Source: Patescibacteria group bacterium (GTDB lineage Bacteria > Patescibacteriota > Doudnabacteria > UBA920). Taken from it: a stretch of DNA of 64,000 nucleotides. The stretch lies in NCBI GenBank assembly GCA_013387205.1, contig WARV01000008.1:136-64135 (forward strand), written 5' to 3'. Positions 2,815 through 43,765 of this stretch are shown piece after piece (position 1 is the first letter of the stretch; every line of letters begins with the position of its first letter). The position numbers and the translations under genes are program-made. The notes below the pieces were generated by a model. It ran no database searches. It saw only the letters and a list, made by a program, of their open reading frames with translations, and was not told where the DNA came from.

Positions 2815-3035
2815 AAAATAAATTGACCTAATTGCTCTAAATTATTATTAACTCATCCTGTCCTTCTCTTTAGCAAAGAGAAGGAACCAGCTTAGCAAGG
2901 CTATAATCTTTCTTAGCATGTTCTCCCTCTTTATCATGGAGACAGAGGGAGTTAGTATTAGAAATTAGAAATTGGGAATTGTTTAGTCCGCCAGCTGGCG
3001 GAAATTAGGTCAATTAGGTTAATTAGAAATTCGCA
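2815..3035. repeat. composite intergenic palindromic element: family A termini (aattgacctaattgctctaa ... ttaggtcaattaggttaattagaaat) enclosing family B core and a CCGCCAGCTGGCGG palindrome
   Basis: Family A 5' module at 2821-2840 and 3' module at 3005-3030. B core 2851-2952 with hairpins tccttctctttAGCaaagagaagga and ctccctct..agagggag. Same composite found inverted at 30005-30177. Confidence 0.7.
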
Positions 3036-3039
3036 GCCT

Positions 3040-3918
3040 ATGAAAAATAATCAGCAGATAATAATTGTTCTAGTGTTTTCTATTCTTTTGGCATTATTTC
3101 TGTCATCAGTCTTTTCAGGTAGAGTAATCCTTCCTCAATATTTTAGTTTGGGCCCTGTTACAATCAGGTATTATGGGATAACAATAGTGGTCGCTATTTT
3201 AGCGGCTTATTATTTGGCGATGAAACGCAGAATGGTTTACGGAATTGAAAATAAGGATGCGGAAAATATAATTTTTTGGACAATTATCGGGGGATTTCTC
3301 GGCGCGCGGGTGTATCACGTGTTTTCCAGTTTTGGTTTTTATTTACATCATCCTTTGCAAATTCTACAGGTCTGGAAAGGCGGCCTTTCAATTTACGGCG
3401 CTTTAATCGGCGGCGTAACCTCGATAATTATTTGCCATGAAATCTTAAATCTTAAATCTAAAATCTTAAATCTTTTTGACTGGCTCGCGCCATCCCTTCT
3501 ACTCGGCCAGATTATCGGCAGATTCGGTAATATGTTTAATTACGAAGCGTTCGGTTATCCAACGAATTTGCCTTGGAAAATGTTCGTGCCAATAGGCTTC
3601 AGACCGGAAAATTTATCTCAAAGCAACTATTTTCATCCTCTCTTTTTATACGAAGCTCTTGGTAATGCCATAATTTTGTTTTTCTTATTGAGATACGAAA
3701 AAAAGATGGGCCAAAGCGGTTACTTAGGGGCAAGGCCGGGACGGCTTTTCTTTATATATCTTTTATTGTATAATATATTAAGGTTTTGCCTGGAATTTTT
3801 AAGAGTGGACAGCACTTTTATTGGCATGTTCAGGTTGAATTCCATCACAAGCTTTGTTTTAGTATTAATATCTTTAGGCTTTTTACTTTTTAACCGACGC
3901 GATGCAAAAATATCATAA
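3040..3918 (+). CDS. lgt: prolipoprotein diacylglyceryl transferase
   Basis: Polytopic membrane protein with Lgt signature GGFLGARVYH ... GGLSIYGALIGG ... GRFGNMFNYEAFGYPTNLPW. Contains an in-frame atcttaa heptad repeat (3441-3472, LNLKSKILNL). Confidence 0.85.
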   Translation: MKNNQQIIIVLVFSILLALFLSSVFSGRVILPQYFSLGPVTIRYYGITIVVAILAAYYLAMKRRMVYGIENKDAENIIFWTIIGGFLGARVYHVFSSFGFYLHHPLQILQVWKGGLSIYGALIGGVTSIIICHEILNLKSKILNLFDWLAPSLLLGQIIGRFGNMFNYEAFGYPTNLPWKMFVPIGFRPENLSQSNYFHPLFLYEALGNAIILFFLLRYEKKMGQSGYLGARPGRLFFIYLLLYNILRFCLEFLRVDSTFIGMFRLNSITSFVLVLISLGFLLFNRRDAKIS

Positions 3919-8811: not shown

Positions 8812-9594
8812 ATGAAAGGGATAATTCTTTCCGGAGGGAGCGGCACCAGGCTTAGCCCGCTGACCAAAGTAACCAGCAAGCAGCTTTTGCCGGTTTATAA
8901 CAAACCGATGATTATGTATCCGGTAGAAACTCTGCTTAAGGCAGGTATTAAGGATATTTTAATCATCATTGCGCCGGACCACCCAGGCGATTACATGAAA
9001 CTGCTTGGAAGCGGCAAGGATTTTGGCGCCAGGTTTACGTATGAAATCCAGGACAAGCCGGAAGGGCTGGCGCAGGCTTTTTTAATTGGCGCGGATTTTA
9101 TCGACAACGACAGCGTGTGCATGATTTTAGGGGATAATATTTTTGAAGATGATTTTTCCGAAACCATCAGGAATTTCAAAAGCGGCGCGCACCTGTTCGC
9201 CAAGGAAGTTGAAGATCCGGAGCGTTTTGGAGTGGTAAAGTTTGACGAAAATATGAAGGCTGTGAAGATTGAGGAAAAACCGAAGGAATATTTGTCCAAC
9301 TATGCCATCACTGGCTTGTATTTATATGATAATCGCGTGGTAGAGGTTGCCGAGCAGGCCAAGCCTTCGGCTAGAGGCGAATTAGAAATTACGGAATTGC
9401 ACAATTGGTATTTAAAGCAGGGCGATATTAAAGTAGATATAGTCAATGGAGAATGGGTGGACGCAGGAACGTTTGAGTCTTTGTTTAAGGCAAACGAAAT
9501 CGCGAGAAAAAAACATTCTCTACTAAATACTAAAAGTACTAAATATACTAAAAATATCAAAGAATGCTTTAATGATATCATTGCTGGTGTATAG
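8812..9594 (+). CDS. rfbA: glucose-1-phosphate thymidylyltransferase
   Basis: MKGIILSGGSGTRLSPLT...KQLLPVYNKPMIMYPVETL, RmlA signature. Last ~25 codons are encoded by a family F repeat element. Confidence 0.9.
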   Translation: MKGIILSGGSGTRLSPLTKVTSKQLLPVYNKPMIMYPVETLLKAGIKDILIIIAPDHPGDYMKLLGSGKDFGARFTYEIQDKPEGLAQAFLIGADFIDNDSVCMILGDNIFEDDFSETIRNFKSGAHLFAKEVEDPERFGVVKFDENMKAVKIEEKPKEYLSNYAITGLYLYDNRVVEVAEQAKPSARGELEITELHNWYLKQGDIKVDIVNGEWVDAGTFESLFKANEIARKKHSLLNTKSTKYTKNIKECFNDIIAGV

Positions 9595-9633
9595 CTTTAG
9601 TATATTTAGTATTATTTCGTATTTAGTAGAAAA
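9521..9633. repeat. family F palindromic element (ctactaaatac...gtatttagtag), copy 1, overlapping rfbA 3' end
   Basis: About 75-80% identical by eye, in inverted orientation, to 53931-54045. Self-complementary termini. Confidence 0.6.
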
Positions 9634-9636
9634 TAT

Positions 9637-10581
9637 ATGACACTTAAAACTCAAAAAATTATATCAGCGGTAATGGTTGGCACGGCGGTTTTTGGCGGCT
9701 TTGAATTGCTTGCTGTGATTTTGAATTTAAACCAGGTTTCCATTTATTTGAATACGGCATTTTGGATTTATGGCTTTTTGCTTTTGTTCATGGCAATTTT
9801 ATTCGATCTGCATTTTAAAAATCCCGGCGCTTTGAAAAGGGCGATGCTCAGGCACGAAAACGTGCAGCATCGCCTGGTTAGGATGGCCAAAATAACCATA
9901 AGCGCTGTTTTTGACAGGGTGAGCCACATCCATACCTGGAAATACCTAAAGCGGCTTTTGGTGTCGTTTATAATTCCCGGCTTCGCCTACTGGGCGACCA
10001 TCGCGCTTTTATACGTGAATTTCGGCAACGTTAAACTGCAACAGGCGTTTATTCTGCTGTCATCTTTGGCGTTAATTGCCATCTATTGGTTTTTCAAAGA
10101 AACATTTTCCAGGCAGAAAGAAGTAGTCGATAGCGACATATTCGTAATCTCAACTGTCGTAAAAATTTATACGTCGGCAATTTTGTTCGCCGCGTCAATC
10201 TCTTTGGTAAGAAGATATTGCCTTGGCTCCGAGCTGCTCGTTTTAGGCACGTTCAGTTTTACTTTTTTGCTGATTTACCAGGCGCTTGTCCAGCACAAAA
10301 TGAATAGCTTTAAAAACATTTTAATTACCTTGGCGATATCTTTAATAATGGCCCATATTGGGTATTTTATTTTGGTTTACTGGGGGTTTAATTTTTATAC
10401 GGCAGCCGCATTTTGGACGGTCTGTTACAATTTGTTTTGGGGAATTTTCCACTATTATTTGGATAGGGCTTTGACCAAACTGGCTTTTTTTGAAATTTTG
10501 GCCGTTTCTTTGCTGATAGGATTCATGCTTTTTAATGTGACGAATTTTAAAGCCCAGTTGCTTGACGCTTGCGTATATTAG
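9637..10581 (+). CDS. hypothetical polytopic membrane protein
   Basis: 314-aa ORF, multiple TM helices, no motif recognised. Confidence 0.5.
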   Translation: MTLKTQKIISAVMVGTAVFGGFELLAVILNLNQVSIYLNTAFWIYGFLLLFMAILFDLHFKNPGALKRAMLRHENVQHRLVRMAKITISAVFDRVSHIHTWKYLKRLLVSFIIPGFAYWATIALLYVNFGNVKLQQAFILLSSLALIAIYWFFKETFSRQKEVVDSDIFVISTVVKIYTSAILFAASISLVRRYCLGSELLVLGTFSFTFLLIYQALVQHKMNSFKNILITLAISLIMAHIGYFILVYWGFNFYTAAAFWTVCYNLFWGIFHYYLDRALTKLAFFEILAVSLLIGFMLFNVTNFKAQLLDACVY

Positions 10582-13434: not shown

Positions 13435-13440
13435 AATAGA

Positions 13441-13583
13441 ATTGACCTAATTAACCTAATTATTTCTAATTATTCTAAATAAATCCTAATGACTAAACCC
13501 CAAAATCTGGTCGTAATTGGGTATTGGGACTTAGACATTATTTAGGTCAATTAGAGTAATTAGAATAATTAGGTTAATTCTTT
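13441..13583. repeat. family A palindromic intergenic element
   Basis: aattgacctaattaacctaattatttctaatt ... ttaggtcaattagagtaattagaataattaggttaatt. Confidence 0.7.
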
Positions 13584-13717: not shown

Positions 13718-15235
13718 ATGAAGAACGCTATGAACGCGATGTTTTTTGCGGTGATGGCTGCTATTCTCGCCGCAGGTACGGTTTTCGGACAGGAGACGCT
13801 GTTTCAGCTTCCTGTGGAGAAATCTTCAACCCAGCTTCTGCAGGAAATGCAGAAGCCGCGGGAAAAAACCATCACGGTTGCCGGCGTCAGGCTTTTCCAG
13901 CCTTTGCCGACTGAGAAATCGGTCGTCGACGACGAACATATGATCAGCGCCCTGCAAATGATCCTGACCGGCCCGAACGCCGACAGGTTTCGTGCAGATT
14001 ACGGGCAATTGCCAACTAGGCAGGAGCAAGAAGCGTTGGTTTTGTTGTACAAGCCAGACGCGGCAACAGCGACTGTCACCAGAAGGCTGTTTAAACCGGA
14101 CGAAGTTACCATTATCAACGACCCGGCATTAGTCCTTGAGCCAGGTGACTGGCGCGTGTTCCATCGCTGGAATGTTGACCCGATTTTGAATCGGGAAAAG
14201 CAGACCAGCGAGAACCGCATCACGCAGATATCTGACCTCAAGCGGTTTTTGCCGCTCATCAATTCCCGGATTGATCAAACAAGCTATCCGGCGGAAATTA
14301 AAGATGAGTGGAAGACTGTTCTCGAGAACTGCATTGACGGCTTAACTGGAGAATATGCCGGGTACTGCAAAGAAGTTGTGGTGTCCGAGTGGGCCCAGTA
14401 TTGGGAATTGATGCTCGGCGGCAGGTCTCACGCAGCCAAAGTGCATTACGTTCCTGACCCGGAATGGCGCGACGCCAAAGCAGTGGCCATGTTCTTGCCA
14501 AAAGCGGGAATGTGGGTAGCACAAGGCTTTGCATGCTGGGGAAATCCGTTTGTTCCGTACCAGTCGCATCGCTTTGATGTGACGAAGACGGAAGTGCAGC
14601 CAATCCCAGGATTCGGCTGTAAGATCTCCCAAGACAAGTCTGTCCTGTCCAGCAGGACAGATAGCGCAGCTTTCAAGCTTTCGGTATTCAGCGACAGTAC
14701 GCCGATTAAGATGGATTTTACAAGTCCATACTCTTCGGTAGATTGGTACCTGGATGCCAGGCTTATGACTCGAAATGTAATGAATGTTGAAGTGTTCGGG
14801 TCAGATCTCGGCGCTCCCGGCGGACCTTATCGGGTCCTCGCACGCGTGACCATTGGCAAGCAGCAAGTGGAATGTTACGGTGATTTGATGTATAAGGAAC
14901 TTCCACCTGTTGTTCCGCCTAAAGTTGTTATTCCGCCGCCAACTCCAATAGTACCGCCTCCAGTAGTTACGCCGCCGCCAAAGCCGGAATGTCCGGAATG
15001 CAAGCACAAGGTTTGGCCTTGGATTCTGGGAGCAGCGGTCGCTGGCGGAGCTGTATGCGGCATCACGTATGCAGCGCACGTCGCGCCATGCGGTCACGAA
15101 GAAAAAGTAACACCGACCAAAACACCAATAGGCCCCGGACAAATAATGGGATCGAGCGCAACAACAATCACGCCATCAGTATTTATCGATCCTAGGACAC
15201 GTACCAAAGCCTTCGGCTTTAAGGTTCGCTTCTAG
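13718..15235 (+). CDS. secreted/membrane-anchored hypothetical protein, compositionally foreign (high GC, strong SD)
   Basis: Signal peptide MKNAMNAMFFAVMAAILAAGTVFGQE, Pro-rich PPVVPPKVVIPPPTPIVPPPVVTPPPKPECPEC, then TM WPWILGAAVAGGAVCGI. aaggagga SD 8 nt upstream. Visibly GC-richer than its flanks, with many spurious antisense ORFs. Confidence 0.7.
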   Translation: MKNAMNAMFFAVMAAILAAGTVFGQETLFQLPVEKSSTQLLQEMQKPREKTITVAGVRLFQPLPTEKSVVDDEHMISALQMILTGPNADRFRADYGQLPTRQEQEALVLLYKPDAATATVTRRLFKPDEVTIINDPALVLEPGDWRVFHRWNVDPILNREKQTSENRITQISDLKRFLPLINSRIDQTSYPAEIKDEWKTVLENCIDGLTGEYAGYCKEVVVSEWAQYWELMLGGRSHAAKVHYVPDPEWRDAKAVAMFLPKAGMWVAQGFACWGNPFVPYQSHRFDVTKTEVQPIPGFGCKISQDKSVLSSRTDSAAFKLSVFSDSTPIKMDFTSPYSSVDWYLDARLMTRNVMNVEVFGSDLGAPGGPYRVLARVTIGKQQVECYGDLMYKELPPVVPPKVVIPPPTPIVPPPVVTPPPKPECPECKHKVWPWILGAAVAGGAVCGITYAAHVAPCGHEEKVTPTKTPIGPGQIMGSSATTITPSVFIDPRTRTKAFGFKVRF

Positions 15236-15413
15236 CGTTTAATCGGCGAAGGGGTGGGGGATTAGCCAAAAGCTATTCTCCCATCCCTCTCATACCTTTA
15301 AGGAAAAATTAAGATCTCTGGTTAAAATCCGTCAAAATCATCAGAATTAAGCGGAATTTAACGAGGGATGTTATAAATACGATAAAAATATAAAAAATCT
15401 AAATTTTTTTAGT

Positions 15414-15570
15414 GTCATTGCGAGCGATTTAAGGTCCGCCAGCTGGCGGATTGGCTTAAATTGCGTGGCAATCTAAGCAGGGAAAGATTACTTCCCCCTT
15501 CGCTAAAGCTACGTCGGACAAGTCGGATGCCCCAAAGGAGCCTCTTTGAGGCACTCCTCCTCGCAATGAC
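15414..15570. repeat. family C element (GTCATTGCGAG ... CTCGCAATGAC terminal inverted repeats) carrying a CCGCCAGCTGGCGG palindrome
   Basis: gtcattgcgag at 15414, ctcgcaatgac ending 15570, internal tcggatgccccaaaggagcctctttgaggcactcc module shared with 23296-23358. Confidence 0.7.
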
Positions 15571-15682
15571 AGGTAATTAATTGCATTTCACAAATCTCAA
15601 AAATCAGCTATAATAATATATCTTATTAATGCGAGAAATTATTAAATTAGCCTTGTTTTAAGGATTTTTTAGTAAATTAGCC

Positions 15683-15711
15683 TTGACAAAGAGGGGAAAA
15701 AGGCGTATAAT
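15683..15711 (+). promoter_or_regulatory. consensus sigma70 promoter TTGACA-17-TATAAT
   Basis: ttgacaaagaggggaaaaaggcgtataat, 24 nt upstream of the ATG at 15735. Confidence 0.6.
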
Positions 15712-15734
15712 AGTAGGTCATTAAAATATAATAT

Positions 15735-18700
15735 ATGAACCAAATGTTTTCAAAAATCTCTATAAAGACAGCTTTTCTGGCCGCTTTTGCAGTACTTGCT
15801 TTGTTAGCTTTGGCGCCAAGAAAGATTGATATAACCCAGGCCGAAAGCTGCTCAAACCCTCCGACTCATCCGGCATTTAATGTCTATCAAATAGATTTTT
15901 CCGGAAGCGGCTGTACTGATTACCCGACCATGATGGCCAGGGTTTTGCGTAATGGCCAGGAAATCCAAGGCTACCAGAGCGTGTATAATTCAGGCGCCAA
16001 TGCCCAAGCTGGCGATGAATTAGACGTTGTTGTTTACGTGCACAACGGCGCTGCGGAAAACTTAGACCCAGAACAAACTACCGCACGCGGAATTTATTTG
16101 AATACTACAGTCGACGGCACCTTTGAACCGGAACATACCATTAGCGTGACTGTCACTTCGCAGAACGCTGCTACCGTAAACGGCGCTTTTGGCATACATA
16201 CCGCTTCCAATGAAGCTTTGCAGGTTATCCCGAATAGCGGAGCCGTCTACGAACGCGGCAATCCAAACGCAATCCAGAGCGGATTGAACATCGGCGATAA
16301 TTCTTTTTCTTTGGGCGACATGCACGCCTGCTACCAATATTTGCGCTTCGTGCACTTTAGGGTTAAAGTCGTTGCCAAGCAAGTCCAGCCGACCGCAAAC
16401 ATTAGCGCCCAAGTCGGCTCGCAGGTCAACGGACAGTGCTTGCTTAACGGCAGCGTTACCTGGTCTTCGGAAAATGTCACTAACCCGCGCGTTTACGTAA
16501 AAGACGTGAATGATAATTTTGAACAATTGTTGGCTTCTGCTCCAAACGGCACTTCTGACACGCCTTGGCTTAAGCCGAACGATTCTTACATTTTTACTTT
16601 CAGGGGCGATAATATCCAGGACAAAACCGCCAATGTCACGACCGGCAATTTGAGCTGCGCTGTTCCGCCTGCCGGCAAAAACACTATCACTGCCCAAGCC
16701 GGCAACCAGATTGGCGCGCAGTGTTTGAGGGATGGTACTGTGAGCTGGACCAACGCTTCCAATGTCTCTATTGTGGAAGTTACTGTCCAGGATATTACCA
16801 CCAGTTCTCCGGTTAACAGCATAACCGGCCCTGCCGGCTTTCCCAACAGCAGCAGCGACACTCCTTGGCTGACCCCGGGCGATACTTTTCGCTATATTTT
16901 GTACGATACTACCAATGGCCAGCATACGGAACTGGCCAGGTATGATTTAAACGTGCCCACTTTAAACTGTGTCGTCACGCCTCCTGTCAGCTACACCCTG
17001 ACTACCAACAAGACTGATTATTGCGTGGGCGACATCCCGCAGTACACCATCACTTCTTCTCCAGCTTTGGCCGGCAAGAAAATCTTGTGGTCTTCTTTCT
17101 TCAACGGCCAGCCGACTGGCGAAATTAACACGGACTACGGTTTTTACCTGGACGCCAACGGCTTCTGGTCTGCTTATGGCAGCGGCTGGTACAGCAAAGA
17201 CATTGGTTCCTGGGTCAAGGAAGCCAACATTGACGGCGTGAAAAAGTCTGTCAGCTTTACCGTAAGGAACTGCGCGGCTCCGGTACCTACTTTAACCTGT
17301 ACTCCAGAAAACCAGACAACTGACATAGGCACAATCGTGTTCTTTACTGCTAATGGTGGAACTAGTCCTTATACCTTTACCGCTCCGGAAGGCGTAAATT
17401 CTTTCCCGAACGGAAGTAGTGGTTTCCATACCACGTATTTCAGCGCGGGCGACAAAGTTGTGACTGTTAAAAGCACTGATGGCCAGACAGCCATTTGTAA
17501 TGTGCATGTAAAAACCCCCCCGTCCCAGACTTTAGTTTGTTCTCCTTCTAGCCAGACTGTAAATGTAAACCAATCAGCCCTCTTTTCGGCAACCGGCGGC
17601 AAGGGAAGTTATACCTGGATAGCCAACGGCGGCAGCCCGGCGTCCGGAGCCGGCGGTTCTTTCTCTACGCAATACGCGTCCAGTGGCAGTAAGACCGTAA
17701 CTGTAGCCAGCAGCGACGGGCAGACGGCAAATTGTTACGTGCAGGTGAGCCCGCCGATTGAGCAGAATTTGGTTTGTACCACTTTAACTCCTTCTGTTGA
17801 TATTAACCAGACAGCCAATTTTTCCGCTACAGGCGGCAATGGCTCGTATTCCTGGTCTGCGGTTGAAGGATATCCTTCAAGCGGGGTTGGAAACAGCTTT
17901 TCTTCAAAATTCGCTACCAGCGGCAGCAAGACAGCTGTGGTAACAAGTGGCAGCAAAACCGCCACATGTTACGTGCAGGTTAGCCAGCCCGTAGTACAAA
18001 AAGGCGTATTGCAGATTTCCAAAGAAGTCAGGAATGTGACAAGCGGCGGGGATTTCAGCCATACAGCTTTCGCCAACCAGAATGACATAGTGGAATACCG
18101 CATTAAGGTATCGGCTGCGACTAATGTAGTGTTACAAAACGTTAAAGTAACCGATACTAGCAATTCCGGAATCGCTTACGTTGACGGAACTTTAACCCAG
18201 GACGGCGCAGTCCATGCTCCGGGGCTAACCTCTGGCGGCATTATTATCAGCCAGGTTGGGCAGACTCCGGTAGTGTTTACCTATAGGGCAAAAGTTTTAA
18301 TCAATAGCGGATCTGTCATAAACACGGCTTCGGCTTCTGCTGATAACGCCATTAACACTCCTTATGACCAGGCAGTTGTTACTGTTACTTTTATACAGCC
18401 CGGCCAGCCATCTATGACCATTACCAAGCAGGTGATGAATGTTACCAAAAATACCGGCTTTAGCTCTTCTGTTTCCGCAACCAAAGGCGATACTGTAAAA
18501 TACCAGATTGTTGTTTCTAACGTAGGAAACGCGGATGCTACTAATGTTTTCGTTAATGACAGCAACCCGATTGGCAACATAACAGGATTAACAGTATCAA
18601 GAAGCGGTTTTGGCGGAACGTTCGGCGCAAGCGGGATTTCTTTGGGCACTTTGGCCAAAGGAGAAAGCGTGACCATAACTTACAGCGGTACTGTGAATAT

Positions 18701-20993: not shown

Positions 20994-22172
20994 ATGGACA
21001 ATAATTATCTCAATGATTTAATTAATGAAACGCAAAGCAGGGGAGGTGGGTTGCTTTTGAATTTTAACGAAAAGCCTGCAGTAGTAGTGCTGACAGTTGA
21101 AAAATATAACGAGTTGCTGCAAAAACCGGATGTGGTTTTTAAGCAGCAGATGGTTTTGGGAGACATGGCTGAACAGGTTTCTGAAAAAGGAAAAATTTTG
21201 GTGACCGGCGGGGCAGGGTATATTGGTTCACACCTTGTCAGGCAATTATTAGAGCACGGATACGAAGTAGTGATTTTGGATAACTTAAGCACCGGGAAAA
21301 AAGAGAATATTCCGGCAGGCGCGAGTTTTATTGAAGGAGATTTGAAAGATGTGAATTTGTTGCGCGATATTTTTGCCGCGCATCGCATTAGTGCGGTCGT
21401 CCACATGGCGGCCAGCATCGAGGTTGAAGAGTCTGTCAGGGAGCCGGAAAAATATTTTGAAAACAATGTGGGTAACACGGAAAAGCTGCTGGTCGCCATG
21501 AACGAGGCTGGCGTAAAAAAAATAATTTTTTCTTCCACCGCAGCAGTTTATGGGGAGCAGGAAAAAATGCCGATTACGGAAAATTCCCCGGCCAGGCCGA
21601 ATAATCCATACGGCTATACCAAACTTTTGGCGGAAAAAGCCATAAAGTATTACACGAAATACGCCGGGCTGAAAGCGATAATTTTCAGGTATTTCAATGC
21701 CTGTGGCTGTGATTTTGACGGGTCTATTATTCCAACACACGAATCGCATTTAATCCCAATAGTATTAGAAGTTGCCAAGGGCATAAGACCGCACCTGCAA
21801 GTGTATGGCGGCGATTATAAAACTTTTGACGGCACATGCATTAGGGACTACGTGCATGTCTTGGATATTGCCAAAGCGCACGTTGCTGCTTTGGAAAAAA
21901 TTGACGGAATGGATAATTTTAATATAATCAACATCGGCACAGGCCGCGGCAGCAGCGTTAAAGAAGTCATAAATGCGGCATCAGAAGTTTTAAATAAAAT
22001 TATTCCCATGGAAATCGGCGCGCGAAGGGCCGGTGATTCTGTAATCACGGTTGCGGATAATACAAAGCTAAAACAAATTCTCGGATACGAACTCAAGCAT
22101 AGTGACCTTGAAACCATTATTAAGACTTCCTGGAATCAGATTAGCAATAAAGTTTCAGCTGCCTTATCTTAA
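20994..22172 (+). CDS. galE: UDP-glucose 4-epimerase with ~65-aa N-terminal Phd/YefM-antitoxin-like extension
   Basis: GalE core KILVTGGAGYIGSHLV ... YGYTKLLAEK. N-terminus NFNEKPAVVVLTVEKYNELL resembles the Phd/YefM antitoxin fold motif. An internal Met (MAEQVSEKGKILVTGG) could give a standalone GalE. Confidence 0.8.
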   Translation: MDNNYLNDLINETQSRGGGLLLNFNEKPAVVVLTVEKYNELLQKPDVVFKQQMVLGDMAEQVSEKGKILVTGGAGYIGSHLVRQLLEHGYEVVILDNLSTGKKENIPAGASFIEGDLKDVNLLRDIFAAHRISAVVHMAASIEVEESVREPEKYFENNVGNTEKLLVAMNEAGVKKIIFSSTAAVYGEQEKMPITENSPARPNNPYGYTKLLAEKAIKYYTKYAGLKAIIFRYFNACGCDFDGSIIPTHESHLIPIVLEVAKGIRPHLQVYGGDYKTFDGTCIRDYVHVLDIAKAHVAALEKIDGMDNFNIINIGTGRGSSVKEVINAASEVLNKIIPMEIGARRAGDSVITVADNTKLKQILGYELKHSDLETIIKTSWNQISNKVSAALS

Positions 22173-22200
22173 GAAACCAAAATATAAAAGGAGGATGTTG

Positions 22201-22395
22201 ATGGGTAACACCAAAGAAGAAAGATGTAAGATTTTGTATATGGAAAACGGCAAGCCTCAGGAGTGCGGTGGAAAAATTGAGCCGGCAGATTTCAGGGTGC
22301 CGGCTAATCCCCATAACCCGCTTCATGGTGGCGTTTTGGGGAAGCCTTTTCTATACAGGTTTTGTACCAAATGCCATGTTTTAACGAGCGGCTAA
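22201..22395 (+). CDS. small Cys-rich (zinc-ribbon-like) hypothetical protein
   Basis: MGNTKEERCKILYMENGKPQECGG ... FCTKCHV, aaaggagga SD upstream. Track ORF 22102-22395 probably over-extended. Confidence 0.5.
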   Translation: MGNTKEERCKILYMENGKPQECGGKIEPADFRVPANPHNPLHGGVLGKPFLYRFCTKCHVLTSG

Positions 22396-22414
22396 AGATA
22401 TGCCGTAATAAATA

Positions 22415-22457
22415 CCGCCGCTTTCTCACTGTGAATGTGAGAAAGCGGCGTTTTTTT
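22415..22457. terminator. bidirectional intrinsic terminator
   Basis: ccgccgctttctcactgtgaatgtgagaaagcggcgttttttt between convergent genes. Confidence 0.7.
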
Positions 22458-22467
22458 GGTTCCCGAA

Positions 22468-23070
22468 TCAGTTGCTATATAGCAGTTGATGGCCTCTCGC
22501 AATCGTTTGCAGGTTTTCGGCTTCGCGGCACGCGCCGCCAAAGTTGTGGTGGGTTTTCACCTCCTGGATGACTTTGGTCGCTTTCCGGTAAATACTGGCC
22601 ATCAAGCAGAACCTCGTTGCCATGTCGCAGAAAGTGAGAACGTTCCTTCCAAAGCAGCAGTTGGAATAAATATCATAAATCATCCAACTGTACTTGTCGT
22701 TTCCGCCGTACGTAACCTTGCCGTCGGAAATTTTAATCTCACAAGCACTGTTGGTGATTCCACTGCGCACAGTGATGGTCACTTGCGAAATCATTTCACT
22801 TATAGGCAAGATATCGATCTTGTCATTGACCAAAGGCCTGTTCCAGCTTGTTAGCTGATCGAACGTTCCATAAATCTGGGATGGGCTTATAACCATCTCA
22901 GTTTCCAACTCTCTGGTCGGCAGGAGTTTTTTACCTAGGATTATGCCCTTTTGCTGGTTTGGGACAATGCGGAAGCGCAACTCACGGAACTGATCGAGTG
23001 TTTCCTGGTAAAACCGTTCCTCGAATTTCGGAGGAATTATCGGGTGCGTCAAAAGGCTCAGGTTAACCAT
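22468..23070 (-). CDS. hypothetical Cys-rich protein, compositionally foreign (high GC, SD present)
   Basis: Likely start ATG at 23070 (aagaggaaaggcaatATG on minus). Track ORF extends to 23325. GC visibly higher than surroundings, with both strands open. No family assigned. Confidence 0.55.
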   Translation of the reverse strand: MVNLSLLTHPIIPPKFEERFYQETLDQFRELRFRIVPNQQKGIILGKKLLPTRELETEMVISPSQIYGTFDQLTSWNRPLVNDKIDILPISEMISQVTITVRSGITNSACEIKISDGKVTYGGNDKYSWMIYDIYSNCCFGRNVLTFCDMATRFCLMASIYRKATKVIQEVKTHHNFGGACREAENLQTIARGHQLLYSN

Positions 23071-23295
23071 ATTGCCTTTCCTCTTTCTTGTTTTGCCGCT
23101 GTTAAGCGGAACGACAGAAATTTTTAGGACCTGTCGCACATCCCGTTTGAGTAGCAATATAATACCATTTATGTCTTTGTTAATCAATCCTGTGTTACAA
23201 AACAGCAAATTTGTCGTTATATTATATATAATGCGAAATAGGATCAAGTTGTCATTACGAGGAGCCCGCAGGGCGACGTGGTAATCTTTGTACCA

Positions 23296-23491
23296 TGATA
23301 AGATTGCTTCGGTCGGATGCCCCAAAGGGGCCTCTTTGAGGCACTCCCTCGCAATGACATTGCTTGTTTGCTGTCATTGCGAACCCTGATATTTTATAGC
23401 TTTTAAATATCATGGTGAAGCAATCTGTTTAAGAGATTCTTCGCTACGCTCAGAATGACGCCTGAGGAGTAGTGGATTCGCTCGCAATGAC
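23296..23491. repeat. family C elements: one 3' half-copy (23296-23358) plus one full copy (23374-23491)
   Basis: ctcgcaatgac at 23348-23358 and 23481-23491, gtcattgcga at 23374. Internal gaagcaatctgtt..aagagattcttcg hairpin as in the 51322 copy. Confidence 0.7.
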
Positions 23492-23658
23492 GATAAAAAT
23501 TCGCATTAAAACATCAATTATGATATAATAATGGAAACTAATTTACCCCGCACACCAATTTTCACCAGGTTTTGATATATATCAAGACTAATTATAATCG
23601 GTGAGTATTCAATACGCACGATATTAAATGGTAATTGGTGTGGGGTCAAGACAAAAAT

Positions 23659-24393
23659 ATGAAAAAATTATCCGTGGTTATTCCCGCCTATAACGAAGAG
23701 CAACGCATTGCCAAAACTTTGCTTGCCGTAGGCGAATATTTATCGAAACAAAATTACGATTACGAGATTTTGGTGGTTAATGATGGCTCAAAAGACAACA
23801 CCGCAGGAGTTGTCAGGGCGCAGATGGATAAAATAAAAAACCTGCATTTAATTGACCATCATGAAAATCATGGCAAAGGCTGGGTGACAAAAGACGGCAT
23901 GCTGCATGCAAACGGCGATGTACGCGTATTTTTGGATGCGGATAATTCCACCAAAATTGATGAAATTGGCAAAATGCTGCCATTTTTCGACCAGGGTTTT
24001 GATATTGTGGTCGGCTCCAGGCGCATAGAAGGTTCGCATTTAGATGTTAAGCAGAATTTTCTCAGGGATACTTTGGGCGGAATTTTCAGGCTGATTGTGC
24101 ATACCGTGGTACCAGTCGGCGTCACTGATACCCAATGCGGCTTTAAGGCTTTTTCCGCAAAATCAACCGAAGCCATTTTTCCCAAACAGACAATTTTCCG
24201 CTGGGCTTTTGACGTAGAGATTCTGGCTTTAGCCAGAAAGCAGGGTTTTAAAATAAAAGAAGCACCGGTTACTTGGGTTAACGACGGAGCCAGCCATGTT
24301 AAGCTCTCCGGAATGATTAAAATGCTTTTGGAAATAATACAGATCCGATTTAATTTGTGGTGCGGAAAATACAATAGTAATGACAAAAATTAA
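23659..24393 (+). CDS. GT2-family polyprenyl-phosphate glycosyltransferase (DPM-synthase/GtrB-like)
   Basis: KLSVVIPAYNEEQRIAKTL ... ILVVNDGSKDNT ... FLDADNS. Stop lies within a family D element. Confidence 0.85.
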   Translation: MKKLSVVIPAYNEEQRIAKTLLAVGEYLSKQNYDYEILVVNDGSKDNTAGVVRAQMDKIKNLHLIDHHENHGKGWVTKDGMLHANGDVRVFLDADNSTKIDEIGKMLPFFDQGFDIVVGSRRIEGSHLDVKQNFLRDTLGGIFRLIVHTVVPVGVTDTQCGFKAFSAKSTEAIFPKQTIFRWAFDVEILALARKQGFKIKEAPVTWVNDGASHVKLSGMIKMLLEIIQIRFNLWCGKYNSNDKN

Positions 24394-24470
24394 AAAAATG
24401 ACAAGATTGACATAAATAATCTGCAGTTAATATTTTGTCATTTCCGTCGTTTTTGTCATTTTTGTCAATA
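24380..24470. repeat. family D (TGACA-rich) palindromic element
   Basis: aatgacaaaaattaaaaaaatgacaagattgacataaataat ... ttttgtcatttccgtcgtttttgtcatttttgtcaat, near-identical to 36145-36233. Confidence 0.6.
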
Positions 24471-24478: not shown

Positions 24479-26344
24479 GTGGAAAAAGAAATAAGGAAAA
24501 AATCTAGACACAAATATCAGGCATTGCTGTCGATAGTATCGATTGGTTTTTTTGTCTTGTCTGTTTTTCCTTTAGCTGCATCGGCAAGTTCTCCGTCACC
24601 GAAAGATTATATAATCAAGTTGTCCTCAAATGCCAATCCAAAAGTGTTGGATTACGTGGCAGACAAAACACAGCGGCTTTTTGAGTTTTCGTATGATGAT
24701 AATTTTAAGAATATATACGCGCTAAAATCGCCTTTTGCCAAAAGCGAAATTGAAAAAGAATTAAATGGCCAGTTTGAATATCTGGAAGAAGAAAAGCCGT
24801 TGAACGTTGCGGATGTTTATGTCAACGATCCCGGATTTACATCCCGCGCAGAAGACACGGACAAGCAATGGGGACTTGCCAAAACCGGATTCAACCAGGT
24901 TTGGGAAAAAACAACGGGGTCGTATAACAACATTGTTGCGGTAATTGATACCGGCATAGACGAAACTCACGAAGATTTGCAGGCAATAAATTTTGTTGAA
25001 GGTTTTGATTTTGTCAGCCGCCAGAAAATAACCGGACGGGTCAATTCCGACAATAACGGGCATGGCACGCTGGTTGCCGGAGTTTTGGGCGCCACTGCCA
25101 ATAACGGGCTCGGCATAACCGGGACCAACTGGATGACAAGCTTGATGCCTCTTAAAGCTTTAGATGACCGCGGCAAGGGCGAATCGGCTTTGATTTCCGA
25201 AGCGATTGTCTGGGCAGTAGATAACGGCGCAAAATTCATAAATTTAAGCGTGGGCGGGGTCGGATTCGGGCACGATACGACATTGGCCAACGCAATTTCT
25301 TACGCGTTCGAAAAAGGCGCGGTAATCGTTTCCGCAGCCGGCAATGATACTTCGTCGCAAGGCATTAGCCTCGACGACGAGCCGGTTTACCCGATTTGCG
25401 ACGACAACAACCAGAATATGGTAATTGGCGTGACAGCTACTGACAGCAATGATTTAAAACCGGAATTCGCGAACTACGGGAAAAATTGCATAGACGTTGC
25501 CGCACCAGGAAAAAGGATCCTTTCTACCATCAATTACGACCCTTTAACCAAAAAGCCGGCGCCGAATTCATACGCATACGCTTCCGGAACTTCTTTGGCC
25601 GTGCCTTTCGTGGTCGGCCAGGCTGCTTTGATAAAATCTTTGCATCCGGAATTTACCAACGTGCAAATTCGGGACAAAATCCTCTCCACGGCCGACCCGA
25701 TAGATAATTTGAACATAAGCCAATGCAAGGGGGTGTCCTGTAAAGGAATGCTTGGCGCGGGCCGGATTAACGTCAAAAAAAGTTTGGAAAGCCAGACTGT
25801 GGCAATTGCGTTAAACGAGGGAGATTTAGTTAAAATGGATAGTAATAATGCCGTGTATCAGATTTCCGGCGGGCAAAAAAGGCTGGTATCGACTTTTGTC
25901 CTAAACCAGCAGTTTTCCAATGCCTATATTAAGCCTGTGACGCCAGACGCGCTGGCTAACATGCCGGATGGCCCTTATGTCACGCCAAAAGACGGCACGC
26001 TGGTGAAAATCGAGAATAACCCGACTGTTTTTTATATGTCCAAAGGACAAAAGCTTCCTATTACTTACAACGTATTCAAGCAAAGGCAGTTGAGTTTTTC
26101 GAATATTAACACGGTCAGCTTTTCAGAATTGAATTCATGGGTCACTGGATCTTTTTTGCCGCCTTCAGAAGGCACGCTGGTGAAAACTGCCAGGAATAAA
26201 ACAGTGTATTGGGTAGTGGGGGATGCGCTGCATGCGATTAATTATGCTTTTTACGTGCAAAAAGGTTTAAATATCTTTCCGGTATTGGTCTTGCCGGATA
26301 AAGACATAGCCGGATTTCCAAAAGGAGAAACGTATTTAAGATAA
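24479..26344 (+). CDS. subtilisin-like serine protease (S8) with N-terminal propeptide and C-terminal ~58-aa repeats
   Basis: Catalytic triad contexts VIDTGID, HGTLVAGV, GTSLAVP. C-terminal repeats (GTLVKIENNPTVFYMSKGQKLPI...) shared with the next gene. Confidence 0.9.
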   Translation: MEKEIRKKSRHKYQALLSIVSIGFFVLSVFPLAASASSPSPKDYIIKLSSNANPKVLDYVADKTQRLFEFSYDDNFKNIYALKSPFAKSEIEKELNGQFEYLEEEKPLNVADVYVNDPGFTSRAEDTDKQWGLAKTGFNQVWEKTTGSYNNIVAVIDTGIDETHEDLQAINFVEGFDFVSRQKITGRVNSDNNGHGTLVAGVLGATANNGLGITGTNWMTSLMPLKALDDRGKGESALISEAIVWAVDNGAKFINLSVGGVGFGHDTTLANAISYAFEKGAVIVSAAGNDTSSQGISLDDEPVYPICDDNNQNMVIGVTATDSNDLKPEFANYGKNCIDVAAPGKRILSTINYDPLTKKPAPNSYAYASGTSLAVPFVVGQAALIKSLHPEFTNVQIRDKILSTADPIDNLNISQCKGVSCKGMLGAGRINVKKSLESQTVAIALNEGDLVKMDSNNAVYQISGGQKRLVSTFVLNQQFSNAYIKPVTPDALANMPDGPYVTPKDGTLVKIENNPTVFYMSKGQKLPITYNVFKQRQLSFSNINTVSFSELNSWVTGSFLPPSEGTLVKTARNKTVYWVVGDALHAINYAFYVQKGLNIFPVLVLPDKDIAGFPKGETYLR

Positions 26345-26490
26345 ATTAACCTAATTATTCTAATTGCTCTAATTGACCCCGTGTCAGGCACGGGGCAGGC
26401 TCTAAATAAATCACAATACCCAAATCCAAAATTAAAAATTAGGTATTAGGATTTGATTAGACTAATTAGGTCAATTAGGTTAATTAGAAA
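26345..26490. repeat. family A palindromic element (contains ccccgtgtcaggcacgggg hairpin)
   Basis: aattaacctaattattctaattgctctaattgacc ... ttaggtcaattaggttaattagaaat. 3' module abuts the start codon of the next gene exactly as at 3005-3039. Confidence 0.7.
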
Positions 26491-26500
26491 TTTGCAGTCT

Positions 26501-28354
26501 ATGAAAACACAAAAATTATTTTTAGCGGCATTAATAACTATTTTACTCGCGCAGCCTATACTGTCTTTGGCTCAAGGCATTGAAACTGGGTTTGACCCGA
26601 ATAAGATTATTGACGACAAGATATTTTCCGATACCCAGACTTTCGGCGGGCCGGAAGGCGTACAGAAATTTTTGGAAGTTAAGGGCTCGATTCTTGCCAA
26701 TACCAGTCCGGATTTCATCGCCAAATTAAAAGAGCCGGACATAACCATGCTTAAGCAAGGACTGGAAGATCCAAGGCCTAATTTGGGGCGGATGAGGACG
26801 GCAGCCGAGCTTATTTGGGACGCGTCCATACAAAGCGGCCTTAACCCGCAGGTAATCATTGTGACTTTAAACAAAGAGCAGAGCCTTATTACCGGCCATC
26901 AGGATTCTTCTCCGGACAAAATGCAGAAAGCTTTGGATAGGGCCATGGGTTTTGATTGCCCGGACGCGACCGGGTGCGGTAATTTGTTTCCCGGGTTTTA
27001 TTACCAATTATTCGGCAATTTCGACTCAGACGGCAACCGCTATTTGGGCGCTGCCAAATCTTTAATGAAATCTTTCAATACTGACGGCGGCCGCGGCCCG
27101 CAAATTGACGGGCATATATCCAGAGTCGGGGATGTTGTTACTTTAGATAACACCATGGGCGGGTTTGACGGCGTGTCACCCAGCCAGACAATTACAATAA
27201 TGAACCGGGCTACCGCAGCTTTATACCGTTTTACTCCGCACGTGTTTAACGGCAATTATAATTTTTGGAGATTTTTTAATTCCTGGTTCAGGTACCCGAA
27301 CGGCACGCTTTTGTCTTTGGCAGGGGATATAAAAACTTATATCATCCAAAACGGCACCAAGCAGCTGGTTCCGGATTTTGTGGCCAAGGCGCGCAATTTG
27401 AACTTGGCATCGAAAATCACCATCTCGCCTAACGAATACGACAGCTATCCGACAGATAAAGTGTTCGGGCCGAAAGACGACACTATTGTAAAAACTACAG
27501 ATAACAGTAAGACTTACGTGTTTATTAATAATATAAAGCACCCGGCATCAAGTTTTGTAATTTCGCAGAGGGGACTTAATCCAACCCAGGCTTTGGAAGT
27601 TTCAAGCAGCGAAGCTTCGTTGTTCGATACTGGAAATGTTTTGCCGCCAAAAGACGGGACAATTATCCGAGGAGTAACTAATCCGGCAATATATTTGGTT
27701 GATGGCGGCAGGATAAAACTTTTCAGCGAGTATACTTTCAAGCAGAGAAAGATTGCAGCCAAACAGGTTACGCCAGTGCCCGATGATGAAATTACTACGT
27801 ATGAAAAACAGGGTTTTGTGCCGCCGCTCGACAACACTTTAATCAAGTCAACGGATAAAGGGACTGTATATTTGGTTGATAAAGGCTTAAAGCGGCCGGT
27901 GACCGCGGAGTTATTCAAAAACCGCGGGTTTAAAGTTAAAGATGTAGTCAGCTTGAGTCCGGACGAAGTTACGTCTTTGACGGTCGGTGCTTACGCCACG
28001 CCTAAAGATAAAACATTCTTTAAAGTTGCCGAGACCGGCCAGCTGTATATGTTTAAGGAAGGAAGCAAACATCCGATTTCCAGTTTTGTAGCTAAGCAGC
28101 GCGGTATAACTCCAGATTACACTTTTGGCCAGAGCATGGCTTACGAATGGTATGATGGTATTTCAATTCCGCCGAAAGATAACACTTTGGTTAAAGGCGC
28201 TAAAGACGGTACAGTATATTTAGTCAGTAAAGGACAGTTAAGACCGCTCACAGCCAAAGCGTTCAAGGCGAGGAAGTATAACATAAAAAACATCAAGACT
28301 TTGCCCCAAGACGAAGTTGACGCGTATGCGAAAGGGGATGTGGTAAATAAGTAA
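26501..28354 (+). CDS. secreted protein with six tandem ~58-aa repeats (PPKDGTxVK...TVYLVxxGxKRPI motif)
   Basis: Signal peptide MKTQKLFLAALITILLAQPILSLAQG. Repeats PPKDGTIIRGVTNPAIYLVDGGRIKLF / PPLDNTLIKSTDKGTVYLVDKGLKRPV / PPKDNTLVKGAKDGTVYLVSKGQLRPL etc. Track ORF start 26453 lies inside the repeat element. Confidence 0.75.
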   Translation: MKTQKLFLAALITILLAQPILSLAQGIETGFDPNKIIDDKIFSDTQTFGGPEGVQKFLEVKGSILANTSPDFIAKLKEPDITMLKQGLEDPRPNLGRMRTAAELIWDASIQSGLNPQVIIVTLNKEQSLITGHQDSSPDKMQKALDRAMGFDCPDATGCGNLFPGFYYQLFGNFDSDGNRYLGAAKSLMKSFNTDGGRGPQIDGHISRVGDVVTLDNTMGGFDGVSPSQTITIMNRATAALYRFTPHVFNGNYNFWRFFNSWFRYPNGTLLSLAGDIKTYIIQNGTKQLVPDFVAKARNLNLASKITISPNEYDSYPTDKVFGPKDDTIVKTTDNSKTYVFINNIKHPASSFVISQRGLNPTQALEVSSSEASLFDTGNVLPPKDGTIIRGVTNPAIYLVDGGRIKLFSEYTFKQRKIAAKQVTPVPDDEITTYEKQGFVPPLDNTLIKSTDKGTVYLVDKGLKRPVTAELFKNRGFKVKDVVSLSPDEVTSLTVGAYATPKDKTFFKVAETGQLYMFKEGSKHPISSFVAKQRGITPDYTFGQSMAYEWYDGISIPPKDNTLVKGAKDGTVYLVSKGQLRPLTAKAFKARKYNIKNIKTLPQDEVDAYAKGDVVNK

Positions 28355-28434
28355 CAAGTGGTATATAGTAAGTAGCAAGCAAGAGCGGGCGTTTCATCGC
28401 CCGCTCTTTATCTTATCTGTCTAATTTGTCCTGT

Positions 28435-28478
28435 ACCACCTTGATGGTCACCATCCGGATGGTGACCATCAAGGTGGT
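28435..28478. repeat. 44-bp perfect palindrome
   Basis: accaccttgatggtcaccatccggatggtgaccatcaaggtggt, preceded by hairpin agagcgggcgtttcatcgcccgctct (28382-28407) and followed by ccgccagccggcgg. Confidence 0.6.
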
Positions 28479-28560
28479 ATCTTGCTCCGCCAGCCGGCGG
28501 ATGATGCAAGGTGTCCTCTTGTTTTAAGGTATTGGATAATTCTGATATAATTAAACAGCA

Positions 28561-30015: not shown

Positions 30016-30177
30016 TTGCTCTAATTACTAACTCCCTCTGTCTCCCTCTTTAGTAAAGAGGGAGAACCTGCCAAGAAAGGTTAGCTGATTGATAACAATC
30101 AGGTCTTCCTTAGTTTGTTCCTTCTCTTTGCTAAAGAGAAGGACAGGATGAGTTCTGGGTAGGTTAATTAGAAATTT
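30005..30177. repeat. composite family A/B element, inverted copy of 2815-3035
   Basis: rc of 30031-30152 aligns with 2851-2952 (actcatcctgtccttctctttagcaaagagaagga ... gagacagagggagt). A termini at 30005-30026 and 30161-30177. Confidence 0.7.
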
Positions 30178-31768: not shown

Positions 31769-31895
31769 ATTAACCTTCATACAGGCGTCATTCCGAGTGC
31801 AGCCGAGGAATCTCCTTTTGTAGTTTAAGAGATCCTTCGCTCGGATGCACTCGCTCAGGATGACGCCGGAGCGTCATTTTTGTCATTTATTTAAT
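31741..31895. repeat. family D element with a family C-like element nested inside
   Basis: aatgacaaaattgacggaaatgacataaatt ... [gtcattccgagtgcagccgagg...gctcaggatgacgccggagcgtca] ... tttttgtcatttatttaa. Confidence 0.55.
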
Positions 31896-31906
31896 TTTTT
31901 TAATTT

Positions 31907-33530: not shown

Positions 33531-33580
33531 TGTCATTCCGGGAGCTACAAGCGTAGCGAGGGCTACCCGGAATCTACGCT
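33531..33580. repeat. family C-like short element
   Basis: gtcattccgggagctacaagcgtagcgagggctacccggaatctacgc. Confidence 0.4.
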
Positions 33581-36143: not shown

Positions 36144-36144
36144 A

Positions 36145-36233
36145 AATGACAAAAATTAAAAAAATGACAGAATTGACATAAATAATTGGCCCAATAATTT
36201 TGTCATTTACGTCGTTTTTGTCATTTTTGTCAA
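36145..36233. repeat. family D (TGACA-rich) palindromic element
   Basis: aaatgacaaaaattaaaaaaatgacagaattgacataaataat ... tttgtcatttacgtcgtttttgtcatttttgtcaat. Confidence 0.6.
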
Positions 36234-36289
36234 TGTGATTATTTTTGTGGTATTATTAAATTAATTATTATTATCTTCTTACTTTAATT

Positions 36290-37549: not shown

Positions 37550-37648
37550 ATTAACCTAATTATTCTAAACAAATCCCAATTCCTAATTTCTAAAATTAGA
37601 CATTATTTAGAATAATTAGAGCAATTAGAATAATTAGGAATAATTATA
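37550..37648. repeat. family A palindromic element
   Basis: aattaacctaattattctaaac ... ttagaataattagagcaattagaataattagg. Confidence 0.65.
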
Positions 37649-37650
37649 CC

Positions 37651-43764: not shown

Positions 43765-43765
43765 C

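Follow-up and report, generated by a model that had tools for sequence, protein, structure and literature searches.

Short repeats with inverted ends recur through a stretch of patescibacterial chromosome, which raises the question of whether they derive from a transposon or are palindromic repeats of another kind. The stretch (hereafter the window) comprises 64,000 nucleotides (nt) from a Patescibacteria group bacterium (Doudnabacteria, UBA920; GenBank assembly GCA_013387205.1, contig WARV01000008.1, positions 136 to 64,135 of the forward strand). [quoted passage not shown] Our analysis indicates that they are probably copies of a CGTC-tagged REP-type palindromic element, a member of that superfamily with an expanded tip. 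Family C is a well-formed instance of a kind of repeat that has been known since 2000, as Rickettsia palindromic elements (RPEs), and since 2013, as CGTC REPs, and is not a new kind. What is new here is the host phylum, the very broad spread of the conserved ends of the repeat unit (its head and tail), the expanded and hypervariable tip between them, and a recurrent insertion hot spot in a protein linker.

The copies are real, with termini far more frequent than in shuffled sequence. The terminal word GTCATTGCGAG, with at most one mismatch, matches nine times on the two strands of the window, where 0.75 matches are expected and none of 100 shuffles reaches nine; at two mismatches the signal merges with the background (11.8 matches expected). 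The matches pair convergently at 15414/15570, 23251/23358, 23373/23491, and 51322/51432, with a lone variant head at 31787, and four dimers are accordingly bounded by GTCATTGCGAG and CTCGCAATGAC (15414-15570, 23251-23358, 23373-23491, and 51322-51432). All copies fold as long branched hairpins (z = -4.3 to -5.4 compared to dinucleotide shuffles; z = -2.2 for the short copy at 33531). The window holds six loci in total, five inverted dimers and one single unit, and a profile built from 249 related units found no additional copies in it. Positions in the initial annotation were essentially right, apart from the corrections given below.

Side-by-side comparison of the window copies yielded a common plan, [Y]GTC-ATTGC-GAG-(variable)-G(A/T)(A/G)-GCAAT-CT, followed in dimers by a 7-16 nt spacer and then by AG-ATTGC-TTC-(variable)-CTC-GCAAT-GAC[R]. 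The repeat unit is a hairpin of ~26-60 nt that has an unpaired YGTC tag, a 5-bp closing stem (ATTGC/GCAAT), GAG...GAA shoulders, a variable distal hairpin, and a CT or CC tail. Stems start with AT and have 5 Watson-Crick base pairs in ATTGC units and 8 in the 33531 unit alone; the GAG/GAA shoulders could contribute further, non-canonical pairs. Each dimer consists of two inverted units with their heads outward, and because the tags are carried outward, the two heads resemble 11-bp TIRs and a single long hairpin forms from the entire element. Tags are TGTC/TGTC at 15414 and 23251, TGTC/CGTC at 23373, CGTC/CGTC at 31787, TGTC at 33531, and CGTC/TGTC at 51322. The stem word ATTGC is replaced by ATTCC, ATTCT, or ATCCT at 31787, in the inner right unit of 23373, and at 33531.

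The tail is CTN in every window unit, and the tail pair GAAGCAATCT...AGATTGCTTC, or its variant GTGGCAATCT/GTGGTAATCT, is found in all window dimers. The variable parts are small hairpins, such as GCCCGCAGGGC in 23251, an AT-rich hairpin in 23373, and a two-level hairpin in 15414. The tip hairpin TCGGATGCCCCAAAGGRGCCTCTTTGAGGCACTCC occurs in only two copies (15522-15557 and 23312-23347, 97% identical); it has the form TCGGATGC-CCCAAAGGRGCCTCTTTGAGG-CACTCC and is nested in a TCGGATGCACT segment that is uninterrupted in 51322 and 31787. Another hairpin, CCTTCGCTRAAGCTACGKCGGAC, lies directly inside the tail, at the same position in 15414 and 51322 and also in a metagenome element 82% identical to 51322. 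The shared termini first noted are therefore present, with each supposed TIR being the head of a unit, and the supposed conserved internal module divides into a tail pair that all dimers have and a tip that only two copies have. Two module types had been taken to suggest subfamilies, an idea not supported in that form; one is this constant tail pair and the other the variable tip hairpin, and the true heterogeneity lies in the unit type (ATTGC, ATTCC, ATTCT, and ATCCT stems) and in the hypervariable tips.

Dimer 1 (15414-15570, 157 nt, flanks T...A) is intergenic and consists of a left unit (15414-15474), a spacer (15475-15484), and a right unit (15485-15570) that contains the tip hairpin GTCGGATGCCCCAAAGGAGCCTCTTTGAGGCACTCC at 15522-15557. 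It begins 179 nt past the stop of the open reading frame (ORF) at 13718-15235, and promoter-like sites at 15587-15614 and 15683-15711 lie between it and ORF 15735. A looser relative of its right-unit tip hairpin stands alone at 39483-39518, just after alaS, as the palindrome GCCCCAAAGGGGCCCCTTTGGGGC. Dimer 2 had been recorded as a right half only, at 23296-23358; the left head GTCATTACGAG at 23251 makes it a full copy of 108 nt (23251-23358), with a left unit at 23251-23287 (tip GCCCGCAGGGC), a spacer at 23288-23300, and a right unit at 23301-23358. Arms in five IMG/VR contigs match its left arm at 95% identity over 39 nt. Dimer 3 sits 14 nt from dimer 2 and is a heterodimer (23373-23459) of an ATTGC unit (23373-23426), a spacer (23427-23433), and an inverted ATTCT unit (23434-23459, reverse complement CGTCATTCTGAGCGTAGCGAAGAATCT), whose right head at 23449-23459 matches with two mismatches. 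An extra partial unit on the minus strand follows at 23461-23491, with the head CTCGCAATGAC at 23481-23491 and without a GCAAT tail; such additional tandem heads are frequent in loci outside the window (79 of 563 heads). The copy first delimited as 23374-23491 is thus present but composite. No Pfam-recognizable gene was found on the plus strand of the 1.46 kb from 22172 to 23635. A 285-aa ORF on the minus strand (22468-23325), which has no family match and reads through the 23251 element at its N-terminus (...ALRAPRND...), is probably at least partly spurious.

Dimer 4 (31787-31864, 78 nt) is built of variant units, an ATTCC unit at 31787-31813 and an inverted ATCCT unit at 31830-31864, separated by a spacer at 31814-31829; its termini are the variants GTCATTCCGAG and CTCAGGATGAC. 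The reported nesting of this copy in a palindrome of another family (family D) was borne out: it lies between family D arms at 31741-31770 and 31873-31905, which are 102 nt apart compared to 0-25 nt in other family D copies. The single unit (33531-33575, plus strand) reads TGTC-ATTCCGGG-(23-nt loop)-CCCGGAAT-CT, has an 8-bp stem of the type of the published CGTC-1 family, and starts 11 nt past the stop of ORF 31907-33520. This locus had been described as a short variant, and the copy is indeed there but has one head only. Dimer 5 (51322-51432) is 111 nt, or 37 codons, long and lies in frame in a glycosyltransferase gene. Its left unit (51322-51349) and spacer (51350-51365) are followed by a right unit (51366-51432) that holds the nested hairpin GTCCACCTTCGCTGAAGCTACGGCGGAC, and the dimer is 82% identical to an element in a locus from outside the window (L169).

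The family is very widespread elsewhere, and its copies share head, tail, and architecture beyond the 11-bp termini, so that neither outcome named in the initial annotation as refuting it was observed. IMG/VR, species representatives of the Genome Taxonomy Database (GTDB), and plasmids were scanned with the pattern GTCATTGCGAG-N80-110-CTCGCAATGAC. The pattern was found in 46 IMG/VR viral contigs, in at least 120 stretches of GTDB species representatives from many phyla, and in plasmids of Methylosinus, Novosphingobium, Methylocystis, Calothrix, and Legionella. GTDB hosts among the matches listed are many Bradyrhizobium and other Alphaproteobacteria, Chloroflexus, Anaerolineae, Bacteroidota, Ignavibacteriota, Armatimonadota, Legionellales, Coxiellaceae, a Parcubacteria metagenome-assembled genome, Clostridiales, Planctomycetota, Atribacterota, and Helicobacter rodentium. 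The GC content of the loci ranges from 30% to 73%, the inner GCAATC and GATTGC are both kept in 165 of 205 elements, and the base preceding GTC is C in ~60% of family elements. Exact matches to the 28-nt left unit of 51322 were found in 32 Joint Genome Institute (JGI) metagenome contigs. The modal form in metagenomes is a 73-74 nt homodimer, GTCATTGCGAGTGCAGCCGAAGCAATCT-loop-AGATTGCTTCGTCGGATGCACTCCTCGCAATGAC, and heterodimers in which the right unit has a different tip and tail are also numerous.

Units counted in the fetched loci (n = 494) have three main tails (GAA-, GTG-, and GCG-GCAATC[CT]) and 279 distinct tips; GCAAT is followed by CC in 226 units and by CT in 268. Most tips of at least 9 nt (200 of 253) fold as hairpins, with a minimum free energy of -7.2 kcal/mol compared to -4.1 kcal/mol for shuffles (P = 5e-29). 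There are three tails against 279 tips, and the folds of the tips are much stabler than those of shuffles, so it is sequence that is conserved in head and tail and only shape that is conserved in the covarying tip. The heads in these loci (n = 563) are mostly paired (412), with 72 single and 79 tandem. The repeat unit is therefore the half and not the whole element, since the 11-mer also occurs singly or in tandem (~150 heads compared to 412 paired).

Further arrangements were seen in these loci. Two to four tandem heads followed by one right unit occur in the viral contigs L039 (692-893, 3350-3552, and 5503-5672) and L032 (4628-4801), where the tandem heads share an 11-nt left flank, TGCTTTAATCC; the window has no such head-to-tail amplification pattern. 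Single units can also be in frame in phage genes, and units were found in frame in a phage portal-like protein (L005; ...TPSARNDSPFVSLRGAEHRSNL...), in another phage protein (L003 2085; VIASKSEAI), and in an ABC transporter, where the unit lies between its two ATPase halves (L130).

The in-frame copy in the window allowed filled and empty sites to be compared among orthologues. Its host gene (50708-51949, plus strand) codes for a GT4 glycosyltransferase of 413 aa, with a Glyco_transf_4 domain at residues 24-196 and a Glycos_transf_1 domain at residues 243-389. All 111 nt of dimer 5 are open in this frame, as the initial annotation had stated, and encode residues ~205-242 (...SSLRVQPKQSVRSNQEIASSTFAEATADLRSDALLAMT...) between the two domains. 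The closest GT4 homologues are named Patescibacteria group or Candidatus Doudnabacteria, and the gene order SIMPL, Bac_transf, GT4, GT4, GT4, MurG is shared with them. In 93 homologues both linker anchors could be located; the linker between FW and DYFL is short in 61 (seven residues in 59 of these), and 13-73 extra residues are present at exactly the same site in 32. At least 20 of the 32 inserts are translated CGTC-type units, reading VIAS...LAMT (ATTGC units) or RHSE...QDD (ATTCC/ATCCT units), and a further five derive from a palindrome of a different type (PPFKGG). The DNA of two syntenic orthologues contains ATTGC dimers that are read in the VIAS frame; the window copy is in the SLRV frame, and the junctions are a few nt apart. 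Frames and junctions thus differ among orthologues, and the insertions are therefore separate events at one hot spot. Filled and empty GT4 sites show no consistent duplication. Insertion 3' of a pre-existing CGTC, in the manner of IS200/IS605, was also considered: TCGTCA is present at one empty orthologue and absent at three others, and tetranucleotide-targeted insertion of this type has no support.

An AlphaFold2 model of the GT4 protein (24 sequences) has a confident two-domain fold, with a mean predicted local distance difference test score (pLDDT) of 84.6 and a predicted template modeling score (pTM) of 0.80. Values of pLDDT below 50 are confined to residues 1-5 and 205-243. The model thus suggests that dimer 5 is tolerated as a disordered linker loop, as with RPEs. 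A second in-frame hot spot, after GVTGE[LF]F (alignment columns 418-447), was observed in orthologues P0004, P0020, P0040, P0050, P0056, P0057, P0062, and P0066. Its peptides, VVAPFMG...DKSGNY and AATGRHN...EAGGLRY, represent another palindromic-element family. The site corresponds to ~51790 of the window and is empty in the window GT4 gene.

Two superfamilies of prokaryotic REPs have been distinguished by their tags, GTAG and CGTC (Di Nocera, De Gregorio, Rocco 2013, BMC Genomics 14:522, PMC3733652). The published CGTC repeats have an unpaired CGTC tag (often TGTC, with CCTC also allowed), an 8-9 bp stem starting with AT, a 4-5 nt loop, and a 3-nt tail that is mostly CCA; they are mostly inverted homodimers or heterodimers that fold as one hairpin, rarely form clusters, lie mostly downstream of ORFs, include in-frame intragenic copies, and apparently lack a dedicated transposase (PMC3733652). 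They comprise families CGTC-1 to CGTC-4, in which RPE-4 corresponds to CGTC-4, RPE-6 corresponds to CGTC-1, and Neisseria dRS3 is placed in CGTC-1 (PMC3733652). Family C agrees with this description in its unpaired CGTC/TGTC tag, its short unpaired tail (CCA/CCN in high-GC relatives, CT here), and the predominance of dimers (five of the six window loci), with homodimers and heterodimers both occurring. Its copies are likewise mostly intergenic and downstream of ORFs, with in-frame intragenic exceptions (the window GT4 gene, its orthologues, the phage portal-like protein, and the ABC ATPase), and neither the window nor the fetched loci link a transposase to them.

Individual units also agree with published ones. 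Units rebuilt from the supplementary peptides (PMC3733652) gave GTCATTCCCGCGAAAGCGGGAATC for the CGTC-1 peptide VIPAKAGI and CGTCATTCCGAG for the CGTC-2 copy RHSE..., which is the head of copy 31787 (GTCATTCCGAG). The 8-bp stem of unit 33531 is of the ATTCCNGG type that CGTC-1 has, and the dimers of R. conorii (SFLRKQES...LDSRFRGND) also carry their tags outward. Novosphingobium aromaticivorans is given as a carrier of CGTC-2 homodimers (PMC3733652), and its plasmid pNL2 carries an ATTGC homodimer, so the ATTGC unit may be the CGTC-2 repeat of that species. The host is a member of the Patescibacteria, or candidate phyla radiation (CPR), and lies outside the five phyla reported in PMC3733652; the spread found here is wider and includes Chloroflexota, Armatimonadota, Planctomycetota, Atribacterota, Bacillota, and viral contigs. 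Literature searches with the 11-mer and typical translated peptides returned primers and noise only, and within the literature collection searched no paper connected CPR bacteria to REP, MITE, or RPE terms, which is weak evidence of novelty.

Several observations weigh against placing family C among the CGTC repeats or against its being mobile. ATTGC units have a 5-bp stem compared to the published 8-9 bp, and their loops are 7-57 nt instead of 4-5 nt, with GAG...GAA shoulders and a hypervariable sequence that itself forms a hairpin. The tail in this genome is CT and not CCA. The ATTGC peptides (VIAS... and ...LLAMT) are absent from the intragenic list in PMC3733652, and we place family C in the superfamily without giving it a family number. 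Four empty orthologous GT4 sites have no conserved CGTC-like target, and the analysis revealed neither a mobilizing enzyme nor an excision product, nor any polymorphic insertion among near-identical strains. The source genome is represented by 64 kb only.

The same observations can be set against other explanations. As classical MITEs, the copies would be deletion derivatives of an insertion sequence (IS), with a DDE transposase binding their 11-bp TIRs and producing a target-site duplication (TSD); perfect 11-bp inverted termini, sizes of 78-157 nt, multiple copies, and a non-coding nature would all fit. Two checks proposed in the initial annotation came back negative, however: that for TSDs and, in the window and the fetched loci, that for a cognate transposase. 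Direct repeats of 2-5 nt at offsets 0-3 showed no excess over shuffled flanks in 194 non-redundant elements, nor did the window copies have a TSD, and the sole flank signal was an extension of the palindrome by one base, C...G, in 154 of the 194. Pfam searches of ~50 window ORFs revealed no transposase, integrase, or HUH protein and no Y1_Tnp match. The window is core chromosome, with rfb genes, ribosomal proteins, rpoA, alaS, murG/C/B, secA, and many glycosyltransferases. Across 1.3 Mb of related loci, no recurrent gene family was found among ORFs bracketed by two heads. Clustering of 4,995 ORFs from 166 loci returned as recurrent families only ABC ATPases, short-chain dehydrogenases/reductases, and phage or gene transfer agent (GTA) structural genes, the last on two groups of syntenic viral contigs. 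Neither the window nor any fetched locus yielded an IS or transposase with these termini, in a search that did not exhaust the IS databases. Half elements occur as singles and tandems, and the termini are conserved from Patescibacteria to Bradyrhizobium, whereas a 2024 census found IS-derived MITE clusters to be 98% genus-specific (PMC11602168); CGTC repeats are not mentioned in that census. Bacterial MITEs such as Correia/NEMIS, ERIC, and Nezha resemble family C in their size and inverted termini, in the potential of their RNA to form hairpins, and in inserting in frame on occasion, but they have TSDs and IS-derived TIRs and transpose as whole elements, whereas family C has no TSD and its unit is the half. 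We consider a MITE origin very unlikely. The non-autonomous, REP-like character first proposed stands, and the reading as MITEs with TIRs does not. Also considered were the QMITE1/2 elements of Coxiella (PMC5896051), which are different from family C.

Of the five intergenic copies, four have an ORF upstream and promoter-like sites downstream, folding is very stable, and many REPs have been argued to be transcribed (Di Nocera et al., PMC3733652). These points would suit a structured element that serves the host as an mRNA 3'-end stabilizer, attenuator, terminator, or gyrase or nucleoid-protein site, its spread being incidental. Such a role is unlikely to explain the family, given that T-tract terminators number zero at 15200-15800 with one weak match in the flank of 23373, that copies occur in frame inside genes and phage structural genes, and that head and tail are conserved in sequence and not in structure alone. 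Units also show no orientation bias relative to flanking ORFs, and Rfam searches of the window and of three canonical loci at the gathering score, and of two stretches of the window at E <= 1, gave no match. Together, the results argue against both a DDE-type MITE and a strand-specific RNA gene, and an exapted cis-RNA role of family C units is possible but unsupported. Still less probable than a MITE origin is that the units are recombination targets, that is, sites for a site-specific recombinase, an IS110/IS1111-type transposase, or a phage integrase, whose spread follows those agents. The Neisseria repeat dRS3, which CGTC-1 includes, serves Nf prophages as a recombination target; elements are abundant in viral and GTA-like contigs, and units have other repeats nested at or close to them. 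On the other hand, the window copies are not adjoined by an integrase, IS110-type gene, or prophage, none of these recurs in the loci, and a target role would not account for the copy number, the dimers, or the in-frame copies.

Placement among the CGTC-tagged repeats also positions family C relative to two better known systems. RPEs likewise are palindromic, enter protein-coding genes in frame, and form surface loops in the translated protein; they also occur between genes and are open in nearly all frames. They differ in the stem (ATTCCYGC in RPE-6), are confined to Rickettsia, and have no identity to family C beyond the GTCATT head. GTAG REPs paired as REPINs and moved by REP-associated tyrosine transposases (RAYTs) share the arrangement of two inverted units in a long hairpin, non-autonomy, the lack of a TSD, a conserved unpaired tetranucleotide at one end, and clusters and mosaics like those of bacterial interspersed mosaic elements. 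Unlike these, family C has a CGTC tag in place of GTAG/GTGG and, in the window, no RAYT gene flanked by units; no RAYT gene is reported for CGTC repeats either (PMC3733652). REPIN-RAYT pairs are vertically inherited within lineages to which they are specific, whereas the family C sequence is conserved across phyla.

We infer mobility of the CGTC-type units from their distribution, from filled versus empty orthologous sites, and from nesting. The units would be non-autonomous DNA elements, recognized as folded single-stranded hairpins by a trans-acting enzyme. By analogy with RAYT/TnpA-REP acting at the GTAG tag, this enzyme might be a HUH/Y1-type nuclease that cuts at the YGTC tag, a step we put forward tentatively, given that CGTC repeats have no known dedicated enzyme. 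Units would join new sites without target duplication, often beside or inside existing hairpins, and such landing would account for dimers, heterodimers, extra heads, nested tips, and the nesting in family D. Selection would then leave harmless copies, just downstream of ORFs and upstream of promoters, and copies could also persist, length and frame permitting, as a translated disordered loop in a protein linker such as that of GT4. Any RNA-level effect, such as transcript stabilization, would be secondary. A more far-reaching version, which we regard as rather doubtful, is that the ATTGC unit forms a distinct pan-bacterial and phage-borne CGTC branch in which an invariant head (YGTCATTGCGAG) and tail (GAAGCAATC) frame a hypervariable hairpin. 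It would be moved by a non-dedicated enzyme (a conserved replication, repair, or HUH-type protein present even in ~1-Mb CPR genomes) that prefers existing hairpins and particular protein linkers.

Other palindromes are common in the window, and nearly all of its intergenic gaps carry one, giving dense structured repeats in a reduced CPR genome. Family D (24373-24469, 31741-31914, 36139-36252, 40745-40838, and 45998-46069) consists of long AT-rich intergenic palindromes with 9-nt periodic words, TGACAnnnn / nnnnTGTCA, that are placed precisely between one gene and the next; the 31787 element lies within one of them. Further intergenic palindrome families are built of short periodic words (AATTAGGTN, ATCCGAAT/ATTCGGAT, ACTAAATA, and ACAGATAT) and are found at 2817-3046, 13439-13581, 26330-26507, 30004-30154, 37545-37657, 43013-43137, 43762-43874, 46493-46622, and 50628-50735, at 9520-9645 and 53909-54037, and at 2045-2167. 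Perfect or near-perfect palindromes stand alone at 46086-46143 (58 nt), 28434-28479 (46 nt), and 48646-48686 (41 nt). The protein genes of the window are nearly all on the plus strand, and a bacterial RNase P RNA of class A lies on the minus strand at 48790-49115 (108 bits, gathering score 100), between SIMPL and the sugar transferase gene. In the ORFs for ribosomal proteins S9 (47070-47657) and S11 (43881-44351), the Pfam domain is preceded by 74 and 45 extra N-terminal residues, respectively. The start of the S9 ORF overlaps an intergenic palindrome (47044-47113), and mechanically assigned start codons are therefore probably too far upstream.

These results settle the repeats as REP-type hairpin units and not TIR/TSD transposons, and extend CGTC-tagged repeats to Patescibacteria, many other phyla, and viral contigs. 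They are relevant to annotation, since units create spurious ORFs (such as the 285-aa minus-strand ORF at 22468-23325) and lengthen real proteins. The repeated, independent in-frame colonization of one glycosyltransferase linker is a natural experiment on insertion tolerance. A host with a minimal genome narrows the search for the mover of CGTC repeats and RPEs without solving it. If the ATTGC units do form a distinct branch moved by a non-dedicated enzyme, the small CPR gene set would give a short list of candidates for the machinery that mobilizes CGTC repeats and RPEs.

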